The notes: generated by a model from the letters alone, not told the origin. 64,000 nucleotides of DNA from Candidatus Rariloculaceae bacterium (GCA_965221035.1 OZ244860.1:3312641-3376640); one strand, 5' to 3'; counted from the stretch's first letter, positions 32,850 through 40,257 are shown. Numbers and translations are program-made.

Positions 32850-34346
32850 TCAATAGTCCAGGAAAATCCCTTCCGCCGGATCCAGACCGCCGTGGAAGCC
32901 GCCCTGGTCGCGCACGACCCGGCCCTCTCCGTTGTCGTCGTAATGCACCCAGACCAGGCCGTGGGCGTCGCCGTAGCCGGGCATTTCGATGGTGGCCATC
33001 TGCTCGCGCGTGGCCGTGTCGAATACGTACAGGACCCCCTCGGCGTTGCTGGTGCCCCAGACTTCCCGACCGTTCGGAGCCAGCAACACGTGGTCGATCA
33101 TGTAGCCTGCGAACACGGTTTCCAGGCCCCGGCCGGTGGCCGTGTCGAGCACCGTCACGGTTCGCCCCATGAACCCCGTCGTTTCGCCCTTGTCGGCGAC
33201 CCAGATTTCCGACTCGTCGGCGTTGAGCGTGGCGCCGTAGGGGCCGATGCCCGCCGCCGCATGCCAGGCGATCTCGCCGGTCTCGATGTTGATCCTGGTC
33301 ACGCTGGAAGAGCCGCCGGCGGGCACATACATGTACTCGGAAGCCGAATCGATCACGATCCAGTCGCCCCGGTAGCCGGGGTAGGGGTACTCCTGTTCCA
33401 CTTCCCAGGTGTCGGGGTTGATCCGCGCCACCCAGAACGGCCGCATGGTGGTGAGGCGCCCGACGTTCATGCTCGACGCCCCGACAAAGGCGTCCATGCC
33501 GCGCGGCCCATAGCCGGCAGGCTGCATCAGGATGTAGATGGATTCGCCGTCGGTATACGAAGTGTAGGAACTGCCGCCCAGGTCCTCGTCGCGGACGCCG
33601 CCGACGATCTCGTCCGTCTCGGTGTCGTAGAGGAACACGTCCAGGCCGTCGTCGGCCCGCGCGAAGGTGTCGATCAGCAGGAGGTTGTCCCGGAAGATCT
33701 GGCCGTGGTGCAGTCGCCCGCCCATGGTGACGATTTTCACCGGCTGCAGCGTCAGGGCGTCCACCTTGACCATGGCCGTGGTGGAGAGCAGCGTGGGCTG
33801 GGTCTCCTCGGAGAGCGCGCCGATGATGTAGACATGCCGGGCGTCCGGCGAGACGACCGTCGTGTGCACGCTTGTGCGCAGTTCCGGCGCCAGTTCGCCA
33901 TAGGCGATGACTTCCTTGGTCTCGGCGTCCCCCACGACGACCCGGTTGGATTGGGCGGTGACCATGTTGCGGCCCACCGAGAACCGGTTCGTGATGACAC
34001 CCGTGTTTTCGTAGAAATAGGTCTTGCCGGGCTGCGGCTCGAACTTCGGTTCGCCGGGCTCGAATTCCGCGACGACCTCGTTCCGGAAGGTGCTCATGAT
34101 GTTGCCCGTACGCGATTTTCGCTCCCAGCTGTCGAGCACGGTCTGGAAGGGTTCGATGCCGCTGACGATCCGGTCGCGTTCCGATTGGGGAAATTGCTCC
34201 AGGGCTTCCGGATCGGGCGGGAATACGGGAATCTGGCCGGCCGCCATTCCGCCCGGACCGCCCGGCCCCATGCCCGAATCCTGGGCGGACGCCGCCTGCA
34301 GGCACAGGCAAAGACCGATACCGGACAACATTCGTAACAATTTCAT
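32850..34346 (-). CDS. Secreted beta-propeller protein, paralog 2 of 3 (no haem motif)
   Basis: Start ATG 34346 gives the Sec signal MKLLRMLSGIGLCLCLQAASAQD. No CxxCH anywhere. Aligns along most of its length with paralogs 1 and 3, for example VHTTVVSPDARHVYIIG, GGRLHHGQIF, and the C-terminus VVRDQGGFHGGLDPAEGIFLDY. Confidence 0.7.
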   Translation of the reverse strand: MKLLRMLSGIGLCLCLQAASAQDSGMGPGGPGGMAAGQIPVFPPDPEALEQFPQSERDRIVSGIEPFQTVLDSWERKSRTGNIMSTFRNEVVAEFEPGEPKFEPQPGKTYFYENTGVITNRFSVGRNMVTAQSNRVVVGDAETKEVIAYGELAPELRTSVHTTVVSPDARHVYIIGALSEETQPTLLSTTAMVKVDALTLQPVKIVTMGGRLHHGQIFRDNLLLIDTFARADDGLDVFLYDTETDEIVGGVRDEDLGGSSYTSYTDGESIYILMQPAGYGPRGMDAFVGASSMNVGRLTTMRPFWVARINPDTWEVEQEYPYPGYRGDWIVIDSASEYMYVPAGGSSSVTRINIETGEIAWHAAAGIGPYGATLNADESEIWVADKGETTGFMGRTVTVLDTATGRGLETVFAGYMIDHVLLAPNGREVWGTSNAEGVLYVFDTATREQMATIEMPGYGDAHGLVWVHYDDNGEGRVVRDQGGFHGGLDPAEGIFLDY

Positions 34347-34568
34347 TTGAGTTGCTCCTCGCAGAACCCGGCTCATCCGGTCCTGTCCGCGCCAGAATAC
34401 TTCAACTTAGCGATCCGATACGACGCCGTCTAATCAAAGTTGGTGATATCGGGCAATTTGTTCTGCCAATGTTGGTCGGAAGCATCCTGAGAATGCGTAT
34501 GGTTGCATAATCGTTTTTGGGGATCGAGTTTGGGAGGCTGATATGGGCAGCGGTTTATCGACCGGGGT

Positions 34569-34991
34569 CTAAGGTAAGACGGAGCGTTGGCAGCTGCGTC
34601 TTCCGTTGGCGTCTGGATCAAGTAGTCCAACGCGGATAGTGCGACCGCGATGGCTTTTATGGTTGTCAAGGATCCGCCGGTCGCGACCCGTTCTCGATCT
34701 GTGACAGATAGGCAGGACTAATTCCGTTCCGGCGCGCCGGGACAATTCCATACCACTGCGACGACGGTACTCGCGGCAGACCCGCACGAGATTTTCGCCG
34801 TCGAGAATGCGATTGGCGAACACGACGGGGATCAACTCATCGTGACCTTCCGCAAGGTGTTATCTAGCCGCGACGTAGGCTTGCGCGTCGGCCAAGTCTT
34901 CAGCGGCTTAATACAGTCGCTCGTATACCTCAATGCGAAACACGATCATGTGCTCGCGAGTCGGCGATTCGATTACTTGCACATAGCGCAT
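34569..34991 (-). pseudogene. Decayed toxin-antitoxin remnant (short RelE/ParE-like tail ORF plus frameshifted XRE-type HTH antitoxin)
   Basis: On the minus strand, ATG 34991 to TAA 34908 encodes only MRYVQVIESPTREHMIVFRIEVYERLY. Downstream, three different frames together spell a typical HTH antitoxin: DELIPVVFANRILDGENLVRVCREYRRRSGMELSRRAG / SPAYLSQIENGSRP / LTTIKAIAVALSALDYLI. This implies at least two frameshifts. Confidence 0.5.
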
Positions 34992-35038
34992 TGTTGTCCC
35001 CCGTACTTGTATACGCGACCGCGAGGGCCGTTGACGTA

Positions 35039-35603
35039 TCTGCGGATTGCGGCCGTTTCTTGATTTGCTACACTACAGGCCTGCCCGGTATTCCCACGCG
35101 CTCAAGCTGCGGATTGCGGCCGTTTCTTGATTTGCTACACTACAGTCTTCAAGCGATATGACGCCGATGTCGCTGCGGATTGCGGCCGTTTCTTGATTTG
35201 CTACACTGGTACGGCCTAACGGAAGTCCTCCGCCCATGCTGCGGATTGCGGCCGTTTCTTGATTTGCTACACTGGATTCGCTGGCCCTAAAGGTGTCGGT
35301 AAAGCTGCGGATTGCGGCCGTTTCTTGATTTGCTACACTCACAAATACATGCAGGATTGCGACCTGGGCGCTGCGGATTGCGGCCGTTTCTTGATTTGCT
35401 ACACTGCCGAACCCTTGCGATCCACGATCAGGTTCGCTGCGGATTGCGGCCGTTTCTTGATTTGCTACACTGCCGAACCCTTGCGATCCACGATCAGGTT
35501 CGCTGCGGATTGCGGCCGTTTCTTGATTTGCTACACTCGCGAGAGACATCACACTTCGATTGACCAAGCTGCGGATTGCGGCCGTTTCTTGATTTGCTAC
35601 ACT
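35039..35603 (+). CRISPR. CRISPR array, 9 x 36-nt repeats, 8 spacers (type II-C); strand given is the predicted crRNA sense
   Basis: Repeat (+ strand) is GCTGCGGATTGCGGCCGTTTCTTGATTTGCTACACT. Copies lie at 35039, 35106, 35172, 35238, 35304, 35370, 35436, 35502 and 35568, each 36 nt. Only the first copy deviates (T for G at nt 1). Spacer lengths are 31, 30, 30, 30, 30, 30, 30 and 30 nt. Spacers 6 (35406-35435) and 7 (35472-35501) are identical. Orientation is inferred from the + strand anti-repeat and terminator at 40135-40257. Confidence 0.97.
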
Positions 35604-35652
35604 GCCCGTGATGTAAGGCACTGAATCGTCGCCGGTTTTGTTCGTCCGCTGG

Positions 35653-35979
35653 TCAAAAAAATTCCAGTTGGGCGGGTGGAGTCGGCGGCGATTCACGCGT
35701 TTTTCCGACATAGGTTTCGATGCGGCCAAATTGCTTGTCTGTAATTGTCAGAAATCGCACCTCTCCTGCGGACGGAACACGACTCCCCATCCTGGCTGCG
35801 TGAATCTTGGCGTTCTCGATAGATGCACAGTGCCGTATGTAGACGGAGTACTGCATCATTGTAAATCCGTCCTTAAGGAGGTCTGTGCGAAATCGAACAT
35901 AGGCTTTGCGAGCTTTGGGCGTATTCGTCGGGAGGTCAAACATCGCGATTACCCACATAGTACGCCAGCCCCATGGCAT
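35653..35979 (-). CDS. cas2: CRISPR-associated endoribonuclease Cas2
   Basis: MPWGWRTMWVIAMFDLPTNTPKARKAYVRFRTDLLKDGFTMMQYSVYIRHC... matches the type II Cas2 pattern (MFD.P....ERKAY.KFRK.L...GF.M.Q.SVY). The start is ambiguous: ATG 35979 (chosen, 108 aa), ATG 35958, GTG 36000, or TTG 36018 overlapping the cas1 stop. Confidence 0.85.
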   Translation of the reverse strand: MPWGWRTMWVIAMFDLPTNTPKARKAYVRFRTDLLKDGFTMMQYSVYIRHCASIENAKIHAARMGSRVPSAGEVRFLTITDKQFGRIETYVGKTRESPPTPPAQLEFF

Positions 35980-36014
35980 TGCCTTTGCTGTCCCTACCAC
36001 TTGCCGGTCCGGCT

Positions 36015-36950
36015 TCAACCGATTTCCGAAGCATCTACGAGATCGTATTCCAAAGGTAGTCCTTGGGGCAGAGATAATTTCCGGTCGCCTCCAGTCAAAG
36101 CGCGGCACAGTGATGCGGCACTGGTATGCAGGGCGAGCAGAATTGGTTCCCGCCGTGCGCCCACGATGATCGTTTCGTTGAGCAGAGAAAGAAGTTCAGC
36201 ACGAGTTTCCCGCTCCGCCAAGTCGGGAAACGAGTCGTGAGTAGTCCCCACAATTTGCCGCACTCGCCAGTCTACATAGGGACGGTATGGCTCCAGCAGG
36301 TCGTCCGCTAGGCAAAAGGGATTCCCGCGATGTCGATGATGTACTCCGATCGAGGGAATCAGTCCCGCTGCAACGACGGCACGGGCGACGGCAGCTCGCA
36401 CGATGGCGTAACCGTAATTCAGCAGCGCGTTAATGCCACCCGCTGTTCGGTCTCGTCGAAATGTCTTTCCGAAAAGTCGCGGCCAATACCTTTGCGCAGC
36501 TTGGGCCTCGATATTCGCGGGATCTCCCGAGCGTACGCGGCGTGTCAGTTGGCCAAGCCCGCCATGATTTCCGGTGAAATGCGACAGTACAATGCCCTGC
36601 TGCTCGATCTTGGCCCGCACGATCGCCTGCCAGGCCTGCTTGCGTACCGGTTTGCTGGCTTTGATCTGCGCACGGTGGCGTTCTGTCTGGACGTGATGCG
36701 CATCGAGCGGAAGCATCATTCCGGCGGGGAGATGATCGCGACCCGTGACCATGACTGTTGCACCGGCTTCCAATAACGAAAGAAATACAGATTGTGTGTA
36801 GGTCGCACGGATGTCGTCGACGATCACAACGCCAAGATCTTCAATCGGCAGAGTCACTCTTGGCATACTAGATCGCTCTACCACTAACTGACGGTAGGCG
36901 ACCGAGAGACGGGTTCCCGGGGTTGAGAATTCTACGGTCTTGCGGATCAC
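36015..36950 (-). CDS. cas1: CRISPR-associated endonuclease Cas1 (type II)
   Basis: 311-aa ORF with a GTG start 12 nt after the cas9 stop. Cas1-like strings NALLNYGYAIVRAAVARAV and GVHHRHRGNPFCLADDLLEPYRP. Position is between cas9 and cas2. Confidence 0.9.
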   Translation of the reverse strand: MIRKTVEFSTPGTRLSVAYRQLVVERSSMPRVTLPIEDLGVVIVDDIRATYTQSVFLSLLEAGATVMVTGRDHLPAGMMLPLDAHHVQTERHRAQIKASKPVRKQAWQAIVRAKIEQQGIVLSHFTGNHGGLGQLTRRVRSGDPANIEAQAAQRYWPRLFGKTFRRDRTAGGINALLNYGYAIVRAAVARAVVAAGLIPSIGVHHRHRGNPFCLADDLLEPYRPYVDWRVRQIVGTTHDSFPDLAERETRAELLSLLNETIIVGARREPILLALHTSAASLCRALTGGDRKLSLPQGLPLEYDLVDASEIG

Positions 36951-36962
36951 TTCCAGCCGAAT

Positions 36963-39900
36963 TCAATCGTTTGCGGGATGAATCCGGCCAATAGGATCAA
37001 CTGAAATCTTCGCACCTCCTTTCGATACAATGGCTGTCGGACCAGGATGAAACACTGTTGCCTTACCAGCATCGTTATGGTTCTTCATGACGACTTGACC
37101 ATTTCCCCAGATTTCGGAAACGACTTGTACTCTGAAAATACCGTTTCTCTTTAGCCGCAATGAGTCACCGGGAGACAATGACATCAAGAATTGCGCGTCT
37201 TTTCCGCGTTTGCGACAGACTATTGGTTTTTTTTGTACCAGCCGTCGTGATGCCTCAAACAAGCTGACCACTTCGTGGTCGATACGCCCATCCGGCATCA
37301 GGTAGATTGCAATGTGATGGTTCTTGCCCAAGACGGAAAATCCTGTCGACGTCTTTGCCATGAATTTGATCTGTTGTTTTTTTCGAAGTCGTACCTTGCG
37401 AATTTCCGGCCCCCTTCGCCCGCGCTTGGGGTAGGGCGGGAAAGCCCTCTTCGGATCGCCACCATGAGTGTTTACCCAAGACTCGATGATTTTGCGTACA
37501 TTCTGGTCAGGCCAGAAGTCTTTATTCTTTTCGTTGAGATCGTTCTTGCTCAGATCTTCGACCTTGCGACGCGAGACAAAGTACTGACGGGTTTGCCGAG
37601 ATTTTTTCGTGGTGGTGATTCCCGTATCGCCGTAGACTGTTTCCTTATGTAGGCGTCCAGAGATTTTCTTGCGGACTCGATGCGACACAATGATTTTCGC
37701 AACCGCCTGCTCTGCGTCGCGTCGAATCGTTGCCCAAGGCGGAGGAAGGTGCGGCTGGGCTGCGCTCGGATCATCTCGCCGTTGCCAGTAATGCGAAAGT
37801 TTTTGTGTCATACCGGGATGGCAACAAGCGACCGTCAACGCATCGACCGCATGATGTCTATGGTCGAGACGCGTTTTCTCGCCGTTATCCGCGAGAATGT
37901 TGTTCAGGCCCCAAAGCCGACGCAGCTGGGCGGTTACGCGCCCCGAAACGGCAAAAACCTTTGTCGGGGCTTCCGGACCAATGTCCGGCCAAAGCTTCTT
38001 TAGATAGGCAACGGTTTCGCGAGCGGCGTAACCGGTATCGTTTAATTGCCGCGACTTGAAGGCGTCGGGGATGGATGGTGCCAAGAACTTCTTGATCTTG
38101 CCCGATGACATTCCGATTCCTCCTCGGCGAGCCCTCATGTCATTGAGTCGTTCCGCAATCACGGCCCATTCGTCAGGATCGCTGGCGAACATCTCGGAGG
38201 GAATCCGGTTGCCCTTGAGGAGATTGACGTCCCTCCGGCATAGTGTTTTGTTGCCGAAACTGTTGTCGAGTGAGAGCGAGCGCGGCCAAATATGCTCGAC
38301 CTGAAAGTCTCCAGTGCCAAACAGGGCGCTAAAAGAGATTGAGTCACCTGTGTATGGACACCTCCGGCCGCACTCATTCCAAAGCAGCCATTTCTCTATA
38401 TCTGTCCGTGATGGCTCGGTGATCCCCATATCCTGGAGGTCTTCGCGCGCGTCGATTCGGCGCCTCTCGTGACGCCTAATGCCTTTCGCCTTCTCCTCCC
38501 TCATACGCTTGGAGTTGCCAACGTCGCGGGCGATCTCGACCCTTACGAGGTCAGGTTTGCCGAACATGTCGATCAAATTGTTGACCACCTTCCGCATTTC
38601 GTTCCGGGTTCGTGCAACCGTGGGGTTTCGCAAACCAGCGATGTGTTGGCGTTCTTCGGGGTCGACGGGACTCGGAAGGCGGTCGAACACCTCTCCAGTC
38701 GGTCTGTCGCGATTGGGAAACGCAGTGGCGCGCCAATTCTCCCAATCTGGATCTGCGCTATTGACTACCTCGCCAAAACGAGCACCCATTTCAAGATGCG
38801 GTAGGATCGCCCGAAGCGCATCAATTGAAAACGGCTCCCAGCCTTGCGGCAGCCGTAGAGCCTTGATTTTGGCTGCTTGCTCATCGGAAAGCCCAAACTC
38901 GGAAGCAAAGCAGTGTGCGACTTTGGCGCGGCGTTCTTGACGCTCTGGCGTTGGAAGAATGACCACACGTTGATTGCCGACTCTCTTGTAGTCCGCGTGC
39001 CATAGCTGGTCCGGAAGACTATCCCGAATTTCTTGTTTGCGTTCGTGGCCCTTCCAATCGTCGCCAAAAATGTCCGCTAGCTTCGCCTCGACGGCATTGC
39101 CGAGCAGCTTCCTTTCGCCACCCTCTTCAACGTTAAATTTGAGCTTTTTTTCCGCGCCGGGTTTGCCGCGCCTGCGATACAGCGGTGCAAGCGAACGTCG
39201 GACCGTGGGCCAGGTCATCGTTGCCTGGGTCTGCAATTTGGCAAGAATTGCTCGGCGTTCTTCCTTATCCAGACGCCGTTGGTCGCCACCCACGAGCGCG
39301 AGATTATTAAGCTTCTCGAGCATGCGCCGTTGTTGCGACAGCCAAGAACCCTTTGCACAGAGAGGCGCTCCAGGAACAAAGCGACACCGGCCGAGCGTCT
39401 TCAGGCGCCAGAAGACAGGCCGTTGAAAAAAAATCGCCTCGCGCACTGCGGAGCGGAATGGCGCCGGCACGAGGGACGACCAGACAGTATCAAATTCATC
39501 AGCGACGACCATGCGTGTCGTATGCTCGCCCCGTTTACGCTCATGCGGTCCCCGTTCGGCCAGCCAAGCGCCGAGCGGCTTGTCGGCAAGCTGTAATGCC
39601 TGAGCAGTTTCTATGCGCGCCGACATCGCGTTCTTGTCGTCATTCGTCGGGGATTCGGTGTTAGAGTCAAGAATGCCTTCGACATCACGTCCCTTGAAAT
39701 GCCGTCGCTGCGCGAGGTGGTAGATCGCGCGTCCGACTTCGTGAGAGGTCAGTGGTTCCCCTTCGAATGCTCGCTTGCGGAGATCGTAAGGGTCTTGTTG
39801 CATCACCTCTGCCCAGCCGGACGTGCCTCGTTTTGGCAGCAACCCAGCTTGGTACAATACCTCGCCCAAATTGCGACGGCGTTCACGTCGCCGTCGGAGT

Positions 39901-40085
39901 TGACGCCTGCGAAGTCGTGCTTGACGCCGTTCTTGATTTAGCGGAACACCCTTTGAATCGCGCGCCTCACGAAAAATACGGACGCCTAGACGGTGTATTT
40001 TCCCCGTAGTGCGCTCTGCATTCTGCTCAATCACCGCGTATCCGATAGACGTGGTGCCAATGTCCAGACCGAAAACAAGCGGCAT
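36963..40085 (-). CDS. cas9: Cas9 (type II-C, compact, 1040 aa)
   Basis: RuvC-I FGLDIGTTSIGYAV. Arg-rich bridge helix ERRQARLRRRQLRRRRERRRNL. RuvC-II LVRVEIARD. HNH FQVEHIWPRSLSLDNSFGNKTLCRRDVNLLKGNRIP. RuvC-III LDHRHHAVDALTVA. Followed only by cas1 and cas2. Confidence 0.97.
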   Translation of the reverse strand: MPLVFGLDIGTTSIGYAVIEQNAERTTGKIHRLGVRIFREARDSKGVPLNQERRQARLRRRQLRRRRERRRNLGEVLYQAGLLPKRGTSGWAEVMQQDPYDLRKRAFEGEPLTSHEVGRAIYHLAQRRHFKGRDVEGILDSNTESPTNDDKNAMSARIETAQALQLADKPLGAWLAERGPHERKRGEHTTRMVVADEFDTVWSSLVPAPFRSAVREAIFFQRPVFWRLKTLGRCRFVPGAPLCAKGSWLSQQRRMLEKLNNLALVGGDQRRLDKEERRAILAKLQTQATMTWPTVRRSLAPLYRRRGKPGAEKKLKFNVEEGGERKLLGNAVEAKLADIFGDDWKGHERKQEIRDSLPDQLWHADYKRVGNQRVVILPTPERQERRAKVAHCFASEFGLSDEQAAKIKALRLPQGWEPFSIDALRAILPHLEMGARFGEVVNSADPDWENWRATAFPNRDRPTGEVFDRLPSPVDPEERQHIAGLRNPTVARTRNEMRKVVNNLIDMFGKPDLVRVEIARDVGNSKRMREEKAKGIRRHERRRIDAREDLQDMGITEPSRTDIEKWLLWNECGRRCPYTGDSISFSALFGTGDFQVEHIWPRSLSLDNSFGNKTLCRRDVNLLKGNRIPSEMFASDPDEWAVIAERLNDMRARRGGIGMSSGKIKKFLAPSIPDAFKSRQLNDTGYAARETVAYLKKLWPDIGPEAPTKVFAVSGRVTAQLRRLWGLNNILADNGEKTRLDHRHHAVDALTVACCHPGMTQKLSHYWQRRDDPSAAQPHLPPPWATIRRDAEQAVAKIIVSHRVRKKISGRLHKETVYGDTGITTTKKSRQTRQYFVSRRKVEDLSKNDLNEKNKDFWPDQNVRKIIESWVNTHGGDPKRAFPPYPKRGRRGPEIRKVRLRKKQQIKFMAKTSTGFSVLGKNHHIAIYLMPDGRIDHEVVSLFEASRRLVQKKPIVCRKRGKDAQFLMSLSPGDSLRLKRNGIFRVQVVSEIWGNGQVVMKNHNDAGKATVFHPGPTAIVSKGGAKISVDPIGRIHPAND

Positions 40086-40100
40086 GTGCGATTGTCCCGT

Positions 40101-40128
40101 TTGCGATTCAGTTCAGATGCGCTATTAT
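40101..40128 (+). promoter_or_regulatory. Predicted sigma70-type promoter of the tracrRNA (TTGCGA-16 nt-TATTAT)
   Basis: TTGCGA at 40101-40106 and TATTAT at 40123-40128, with a 16-nt spacer. This places a start near 40135, exactly where complementarity to the CRISPR repeat begins. It lies 38 nt from the cas9 ATG on the opposite strand. Confidence 0.6.
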
Positions 40129-40134
40129 TGCACT

Positions 40135-40257
40135 TGTAGCAAATCGAGAAGCGGTCGATTTACTTTTCGCAGCAAATTGACCCTTTGTGCGGGCTCGGTG
40201 TCCCAAGGTCATCCACCGAAATCCAATGCCCCCGTCAATTGGCGGGGGCTACTTTTG
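40135..40257 (+). ncRNA. Predicted tracrRNA (anti-repeat 40135-40173, 3' hairpins, intrinsic terminator)
   Basis: 40135-40157 (TGTAGCAAATCGAGAAGCGGTCG) pairs with repeat nt 34-12: 23 bp, 3 of them G-U. A 10-nt/5-nt internal loop follows. CGCAGC at 40168-40173 pairs with repeat nt 6-1 (GCUGCG). The RNA ends in a GC hairpin plus U-tract. The 5' end is inferred from the promoter only. Confidence 0.75.
40228..40257 (+). terminator. Rho-independent terminator of the tracrRNA
   Basis: GCCCCCG (40228-40234), loop tcaattgg, CGGGGGC (40243-40249), followed by TACTTTTGT. Confidence 0.8.

Follow-up and report, generated by a model that had tools for sequence, protein, structure and literature searches.

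A type II-C CRISPR-Cas9 locus with promoter-like repeats and a candidate RNA element at the cas2 boundary in a Candidatus Rariloculaceae genome

Organization of the locus

The 64,000-nucleotide (nt) stretch of Candidatus Rariloculaceae DNA analyzed in this work (GCA_965221035.1 OZ244860.1:3312641-3376640; hereafter, the window) contains a CRISPR locus made up of cas9, cas1 and cas2, a short repeat array beyond cas2 and a trans-activating CRISPR RNA (tracrRNA) gene next to cas9. An original prediction had described this locus as a complete type II-C system with an array read antisense to the cas genes, apparently from a promoter inside every repeat, and all of its coordinates and counts proved correct when checked again. 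The features of the locus, in window coordinates, are the following:

35039-35603, + strand: CRISPR array with nine repeats of 36 nt and eight spacers, seven of them distinct; transcribed towards cas2
35039-35074, + strand: cas-distal 'extra' repeat, presumed to be the oldest, with G1 changed to T and its promoter half unchanged
35568-35603, + strand: cas2-proximal (leader-adjacent) repeat, with TTGCGG at 35576-35581, TG at 35595-35596 and TACACT at 35598-35603
35604-35652, + strand: leader of 49 nt (in the spacer-acquisition sense), containing TAAGGCACTGAAT (35614-35626)
35622-35704, + strand: hairpin of 31 base pairs (bp) and TTTTT (stem-loop 35622-35694, T run 35700-35704), proposed array terminator
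35653-35979, - strand: cas2 (Pfam Cas2), start at ATG 35979 or ATG 35958, stop codon 35653-35655, C-terminus reading ...VGKTRESPPTPPAQLEFF
36015-36950, - strand: cas1 of type II, NMENI class (TIGR03639 cas1_NMENI)
36963-40085, - strand: cas9, 1040 amino acids (TIGR01865 Cas9, 1.3e-170), with RuvC and HNH motifs
40101-40128, + strand: promoter-like site of the tracrRNA gene (TTGCGA, 16 nt, TATTAT)
40135-40256, + strand: tracrRNA gene of ~120 nt, with anti-repeat, conserved body and terminator stem; both ends predicted
40135-40173, + strand: anti-repeat, score 37
40228-40249, + strand: G+C-rich tracrRNA terminator stem of 9 bp, followed by TACTTTTG, with a T run at 40252-40255

The adaptation genes at the locus are cas1 and cas2 alone, as is characteristic of the type II-C layout, and neither csn2 (type II-A) nor cas4 (type II-B) was detected among the open reading frames (ORFs) on either side of cas9-cas1-cas2. 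All three genes could be matched to their respective families, and the initial assignment of the locus to type II-C is upheld. The Cas9 protein encompasses the Pfam domains RuvC_III, HNH_4 and Cas9_a, preserves the conserved motif residues D8 and H598 together with the DHRHHA motif, and can be aligned with solved Cas9 structures across the nuclease core, with best E-values of ~1e-53 to 1e-59; we take these best matches to be type II-C enzymes, Nme1Cas9 among them. The II-C layout, or less than it, is seen in all 80 of the 80 related loci examined, which were drawn from one genome per species. The locus is a further example of the published type II-C architecture and introduces no new mechanism, and the system is canonical and apparently intact.

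The repeat consensus is GCTGCGGATTGCGGCCGTTTCTTGATTTGCTACACT and its nine copies, spaced 66 nt apart, start at positions 35039, 35106, 35172, 35238, 35304, 35370, 35436, 35502 and 35568. Seven of the spacers are 30 nt long and the first one is 31 nt. The end of the last repeat (35603) is separated by 49 nt from the stop codon of cas2, in agreement with the number and placement of repeats originally put forward.

Orientation of the array and the tracrRNA gene

Transcription of the array on the + strand, antisense to and convergent with cas9-cas1-cas2, is strongly supported by four independent lines of evidence: the asymmetry of G.U pairs between repeat and anti-repeat, the anatomy of the tracrRNA gene, the sides of the array on which the leader and the degenerate repeat lie, and a hairpin past the array that is specific to the + strand. 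The convergent arrangement had been part of the original prediction, which is supported on this point.

A local-alignment scan of the entire window yields a single strong anti-repeat, with all runners-up scoring 27.5 or less, and the stem and T run downstream of it complete the + strand unit that had been proposed. The anti-repeat pairs with the repeat over 23 bp, followed by an internal loop (10 nt versus 5 nt) and by 6 bp that involve the first six nucleotides of the repeat. The long arm contains three mismatches, each of which is a G.U wobble if repeat and anti-repeat are both transcribed from the + strand but an A.C mismatch if both derive from the minus strand. Accordingly, the predicted duplex is much more stable for + strand RNAs (-51.7 kcal/mol) than for minus-strand ones (-32.8 kcal/mol). 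The same bias extends to the relatives. An anti-repeat is found in ~35 of the 80, at most ~150 nt upstream of cas9 and on the opposite strand, and the transition mismatches in these loci amount to 85 G.U versus 6 A.C in the orientation that places the CRISPR RNA (crRNA) antisense to cas9. On the + strand, moreover, the tracrRNA gene presents its anti-repeat at the 5' end and its hairpins and T run at the 3' end; read on the minus strand, the anti-repeat would end up at the 3' end. This latter order is unlike the build of a tracrRNA. We consider the + strand reading to be as secure as sequence permits.

Several further features of the tracrRNA gene point to the same strand. The TTGCGA-16-TATTAT site upstream of it is the only sigma-70-like site called in 6.4 kb, and TTG and CTAnnAT elements occupy the same upstream position in the tracrRNA genes of eight relatives. 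The alignment with these eight relatives reveals a near-invariant core and an internal hairpin in which G-C pairs give way to A-U and U-A pairs to C-G; the terminator stem displays compensatory two-sided changes and, across the nine loci, T runs on this strand only.

The opposite possibility, in which the array would be co-transcribed with cas9-cas1-cas2 and both functional crRNA and tracrRNA would be minus-strand molecules, has in its favor that a co-directional layout is the default in type II-A and that the array begins just 49 nt from cas2 with no canonical minus-strand terminator in between. We nonetheless regard it as extremely improbable, given that it entails a duplex weaker by 19 kcal/mol that contains A.C mismatches, runs counter to the G.U excess observed family-wide and leaves the anti-repeat at the 3' end of the RNA, after the hairpins and without promoter or T run. 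Furthermore, the repeat would then open with AGTGTA, and not with G(C/T)TG(C/T)GG, the typical beginning of a type II repeat, which is near-invariant in this Cas9 family.

Two additional traits concern the tracrRNA gene in relation to cas9. The -10 element of the tracrRNA gene (TATTAT, 40123-40128, + strand) overlaps a minus-strand, extended -10-like sequence, TGCAATAAT (40132-40124), located ~40 nt before the cas9 ATG, and the divergent promoters of tracrRNA and cas9 may share a single A+T-rich patch (40117-40136). In addition, on its complementary strand the anti-repeat reads as a repeat-like sequence directed towards cas9. The full TACACT of this sequence is retained in 20 of 32 related loci, and there the sequence could serve as a cas9 promoter.

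A promoter-like element in every repeat

Read on the + strand, each repeat comprises TTGCGG (nt 9-14) and, after a gap of 16 nt, TACACT (nt 31-36), which ends at the repeat/spacer junction; a TG is found at nt 28-29. These are the positions originally reported for a repeat-embedded promoter, the activity of which we infer. The probability of finding TTG, TG and TAnnnT at these positions in a composition-matched random 36-mer, as computed post hoc, is ~7e-6. Conservation of the element was assessed in 41 distinct repeats from many phyla, belonging to loci with a Cas9 that is 28-71% identical to that of the window. T31 and A32 are present in all 41 repeats, A34 and T36 in 40 each, the TTG at nt 9-11 in 39-40 and G29 in 34, and some relatives (e.g. 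L028) harbor a perfect TTGACA at nt 9-14. The conserved positions coincide with those that weigh most for the sigma-70 holoenzyme. In the subclade of the window the anti-repeat has diverged opposite nt 34-36 of the repeat (AAG, AGA, GAG, etc.), and the repeats retain ACT; since the tracrRNA of this subclade leaves these bases unpaired, the conservation of ACT does not stem from pairing with it. The predicted tracrRNA start in the window (~40135) would likewise leave nt 34-36 unpaired.

Several observations weigh against a promoter in the repeat. TTGCGG matches the -35 consensus at three of six positions and TACACT the -10 consensus at four of six, and a consensus scan made no call on them. The conserved end of the repeat is also the leader-repeat junction at which Cas1-Cas2 act, and the TTG belongs to the loop that interrupts the guide duplex, where it might be read by Cas9. 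Repeat conservation alone is therefore no proof of a promoter, because it could reflect either of these roles, both of which are compatible with a promoter function. The direct experimental proof available for related systems is what leads us to rate activity of the repeat promoters as likely.

Two alternatives retain the + strand reading and dispense with these promoters. The array might be transcribed as one long precursor from a cas-distal promoter, with a silent repeat motif and 5' ends generated by processing, an option that gains some credit from the weakness of the motif and its omission from the consensus scan. No promoter-like site was found in 33800-35100, however, nor is there any conservation of the cas-distal flank across 34 loci, and a silent motif sits uneasily with a -10-like hexamer that is near-invariant in the repeats of the Cas9 family and with degenerate first repeats that retain their 3' half. 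Internal promoters, moreover, were shown or inferred in the type II-C systems described in PMC3656092, PMC12477760 and PMC7038990, and we consider the long precursor improbable. The upstream side of the array was also searched for a hairpin or terminator of the kind known from some type II-C loci, with no significant result (z +1.1). Alternatively, TAcAcT and TTG could be conserved as an integration signal for Cas1-Cas2 and as a bulge recognized by Cas9, respectively, their likeness to a promoter being incidental. TAcAcT does abut the leader, which is the expected point of integration, the predicted guide duplex leaves TT at nt 9-10 without a partner and the anti-repeat keeps the full hexamer in 20 of 32 loci. 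Yet integration or bulge functions and promoter function are not mutually exclusive, the conserved sites are precisely the key ones for sigma-70 (first T, A and last T of the -10 element; TTG of the -35 element at 16 nt) and experiments in related systems show that repeat ends of this kind act as promoters. This second alternative appears to us marginally less probable than the first, and activity of the promoters embedded in the repeats remains our preferred interpretation.

The leader and the polarity of spacer uptake

The 49 nt that separate the array from cas2 exhibit the hallmarks of a leader in the spacer-acquisition sense. Leaders of ~49-51 nt are found in most relatives, and a comparison of 40 loci over the 30 nt that follow the last repeat discerns two conserved sites: AA at +12/+13 from the repeat end (in 30 and 35 loci, respectively) and T-G-A-A-T around +19 to +23. 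These positions, represented in the window by TAAGGCACTGAAT, probably constitute an element required for spacer integration.

At the other end of the array, the window and four of nine close relatives carry mutations in the cas-distal repeat, solely within nt 1-6 and with its promoter half preserved. Nucleotides 1-6 pair with the 3' end of the anti-repeat, and the G1-to-T change in the window costs 4.6 kcal/mol of predicted tracrRNA duplex with respect to the consensus repeat. Among type II-C 'extra' repeats, 60% have been reported to be mutated, mostly in their first 15 nt, the median loss being ~5 kcal/mol and the promoter being retained (Feussner et al., PMC12080349), and the extra repeat of the window conforms to this published pattern. 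Flank conservation and repeat decay thus both suggest that new spacers enter at the cas2-proximal repeat, beside the leader. The cas-distal repeat would then be the oldest, because spacers are taken up at the opposite end, and its decay would have begun at the end that pairs with the tracrRNA.

A hairpin over the cas2 stop codon

The leader and the end of cas2 can fold into a 31-bp hairpin whose 5' arm is formed by the end of the leader and whose 3' arm runs antisense to the final codons of cas2, the stop codon of this gene being located in the loop. The fold is markedly more stable in + strand RNA (-45.3 kcal/mol, z -4.3, equaled by 0 of 200 shuffles) than in minus-strand RNA (-28.8 kcal/mol, z -1.45), a difference that is due to ten G.U pairs. 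The same hairpin is present in eight close relatives (L002, L003, L005, L006, L007, L014, L015 and L018), where compensatory changes track synonymous changes in cas2. In the resulting nine-sequence alignment 85% of the cells are paired, as opposed to ~50% after a shift of the partners by 1-3 columns, and about one fifth of the paired cells are G.U in the + orientation. Eight pairs change on both sides, and none of 500 shuffles attains the observed covariation values.

In more distant type II-C loci its place is taken by a compact hairpin, rich in G+C, immediately beyond the last repeat. A T run adjoins this hairpin in L012 and L026 (TTTTTCC; TCTTTTTG), in the style of a canonical terminator, and comes 3 nt further on in L019 (GCTTTTGCG). 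Over the 120 nt past the last repeat of 40 loci, the RNA in the crRNA sense folds better than that in the cas sense by 4.4 kcal/mol, versus a strand difference of just 0.2 kcal/mol in control windows within cas1/cas2 (p = 4e-4), and these 120 nt also fold better than the control windows themselves.

Taken as a whole, these data suggest that the hairpin is an RNA element borne by the array transcript, and its simplest role would be to guard the cas operon from convergent transcription as a terminator or insulator. Two points tell against a terminator: the T run begins 5 nt past the stem, and the conserved Gly-Lys codons of cas2 also fix the T run. The terminator role is uncertain for these reasons, and the broader proposition that the leader/cas2 hairpin is a conserved and hitherto undescribed functional element of type II-C loci, acting as a dedicated terminator or insulator, is put forward tentatively, as somewhat short of an even chance. 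We found no description of a hairpin over the cas2 stop codon in a literature search that did not extend to Zhang et al. 2013 and Mir et al. 2018, and the work on type II-C array flanks covered by that search treats the cas-distal side (PMC12080349). The hairpin is a candidate answer to the question of what stops convergent array transcripts at the cas2 boundary. If it does so, transcripts born in the repeats would end before colliding with the cas operon or reading antisense into it, and the hairpin would define a leader-derived RNA of ~95 nt originating at the promoter of the last repeat.

A terminator-like hairpin was also picked up by the scan inside every repeat (e.g. 35106-35120; GCTGCGGATTGCGGC followed by CGTTTCTTGA). 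It was set aside as a probable scan artefact because its 6-bp stem is weak and includes G.U pairs, and because the repeats of distant relatives have no equivalent of it.

A model for crRNA biogenesis

The above observations can be assembled into a model that, as a whole, we hold to be probable. The cas9-cas1-cas2 genes would be transcribed as a minus-strand operon, and a separate sigma-70-type promoter would drive divergent, + strand synthesis of the ~120-nt tracrRNA. The array would be transcribed on the + strand from its cas-distal end towards cas2, with each crRNA starting from the promoter of the repeat before it (TTG at nt 9-11, 16 nt, TGcTACACT up to nt 36) at ~6-8 nt into the spacer. 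By analogy with Neisseria meningitidis and Campylobacter jejuni, this would give rise to guides of ~22-25 nt with a primary 5' end. At the 3' end of the crRNA the repeat would pair with the tracrRNA and, as in other type II systems, RNase III would probably trim the duplex. Transcripts leaving the last repeat would be halted by the hairpin that the + strand forms around the stop codon of cas2 and by the T run that comes after it.

The original prediction had held that guides would arise without RNase III, which goes too far: the 23+6 bp duplex is a normal RNase III substrate, and 3' ends are made by RNase III in C. jejuni and N. meningitidis. The locus is not a special case either, in view of the presence of TAcAcT and TTG in 39-41 of the 41 distinct repeats, across many phyla, and of repeat promoters being the accepted norm in type II-C. 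Nor is a high-G+C host a noteworthy circumstance, as close relatives are common in metagenome-assembled genomes (MAGs) of G+C-rich Proteobacteria. The locus is thus one more well-formed case of the accepted norm, in a genome that was already public. The recurrence of a -35 TTG, 16 nt and a -10 TAcAcT at fixed repeat positions across many phyla strengthens the claim that type II-C repeats act as promoters, and the repeat, the ~120-nt tracrRNA and the guide length of ~22-25 nt offer a guide design for an uncharacterized family of 1040-residue Cas9 proteins.

Comparison with characterized systems

Type II-B and II-C arrays are known to be transcribed in the direction opposite to the cas operon (PMC3737331, PMC3936727). 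Repeat-borne promoters have been demonstrated in C. jejuni, in which primary transcripts begin 5 nt into each spacer and RNase III and tracrRNA form the 3' end (PMC3656092), and in N. meningitidis, in which transcripts begin at the sixth nucleotide of each spacer from one promoter per repeat (PMC12477760, PMC5965381). The original prediction was right to attribute this mode of transcription to both organisms (PMC3656092, PMC5965381, PMC12477760). Small-RNA sequencing in Clostridium cellulolyticum H10 shows an array transcribed opposite to cas and guides of 23-26 nt, and the last nine nucleotides of its repeat resemble an extended -10 element, from which promoter activity has been inferred (PMC7038990). 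Repeat promoters have also been inferred in Flavobacterium (PMC10309648) and have been stated to be a general property of type II-C (PMC7665894, PMC12080349). At the sequence level, the locus studied here belongs to this repeat-promoter class.

A close parallel is the Nme1Cas9 locus of N. meningitidis, which likewise consists of cas9-cas1-cas2 only, with 36-nt repeats, 30-nt spacers and an array opposite to the cas operon, and in which the leader and the new spacers are also found at the end towards which transcripts run (PMC5965381, PMC3936727, PMC12477760). Interference in N. meningitidis is independent of RNase III processing. The two systems differ in that their Cas9 proteins are distantly related, in the tracrRNA gene, which in the window lies immediately upstream of and divergent from cas9, and in the conserved TTG that the Cas9 family of the window displays at the -35 position. 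The Nme repeat presumably also ends in TGCTACAAT, one base off TGCTACACT. The position and direction of tracrRNA genes vary among type II-C loci (PMC3936727).

With C. jejuni the locus shares a minimal three-gene system and an oldest repeat that is mutated at its first nucleotide (G to A in C. jejuni NCTC 11168, G to T in the window; PMC12080349), whereas the A+T-rich host and repeat, the much smaller Cas9 and the position of the tracrRNA set C. jejuni apart (PMC3936727). C. cellulolyticum H10 resembles the window in its array opposite to cas and in its extended -10-like repeat end, but is a Firmicute system.

The nearest relatives of the locus constitute an uncharacterized Cas9 family (L001-L018), with proteins of ~1040 amino acids that are 41-71% identical and near-identical repeats (GCTGCGGATTGCGGCCG...TTTGCTACACT). 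Its members have in common the divergent tracrRNA, a leader of 49-51 nt and the hairpin over the cas2 stop codon, and are labelled mostly as Alpha- or Gammaproteobacteria MAGs, with the addition of Kiritimatiellia and Binatia. The window locus departs from this family in no important respect, its particulars being a short array (8 spacers, versus up to 100) and the shortened, G.U-rich leader arm of its hairpin. We assume the repeat of the Parvibaculum lavamentivorans Cas9 system to be of the same type.

Genomic context and spacer content

The genes that flank the locus encode an arylsulfotransferase-like protein, an unknown exported protein and a short-chain dehydrogenase, along with a few short broken ORFs. 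G+C content drops to 52-57% over the 6 kb between ~34.4 and 40.3 kb, as compared with 62-66% in the flanks, which are composed of ordinary metabolic genes; this lower G+C content suggests horizontal acquisition of the CRISPR-Cas locus.

The region adjoining the array (34569-34991, minus strand) is made up of short broken ORFs, none of which has a Pfam match. One of the frames reads ISPAYLSQIENG, an XRE-like helix-turn-helix motif that is broken off by a change of frame, and is preceded by a 27-residue ORF; this ORF and the broken ones resemble a toxin-antitoxin remnant. Among the related loci, L010 (11570-11635) and L011 (11469-11667) have repeats directly after cas9, with no cas1 or cas2 in between, and thus seem to possess only cas9 and a short array.

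None of the seven distinct spacers could be matched to 50,697 phage records or 72,556 plasmids, two spacer cores had no match in IMG/VR, and no spacer targets the window itself. The want of protospacers also counts against the interpretation advanced above, as it deprives it of a check on orientation from the side of the protospacer adjacent motif and of any sign of recent activity. Rfam returned no CRISPR-DR or tracrRNA family, its sole match being a chance snoRNA (E 0.79), and a literature search with the repeat sequence retrieved nothing relevant. Within the array, spacers 6 (35406-35435) and 7 (35472-35501) are identical (GCCGAACCCTTGCGATCCACGATCAGGTTC), and probably reflect duplication of a repeat-spacer unit through slippage or recombination, and not two acquisitions. 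The two oldest spacers (35075-35105 and 35142-35171) each start with ACAG, the oldest being the 31-nt one.

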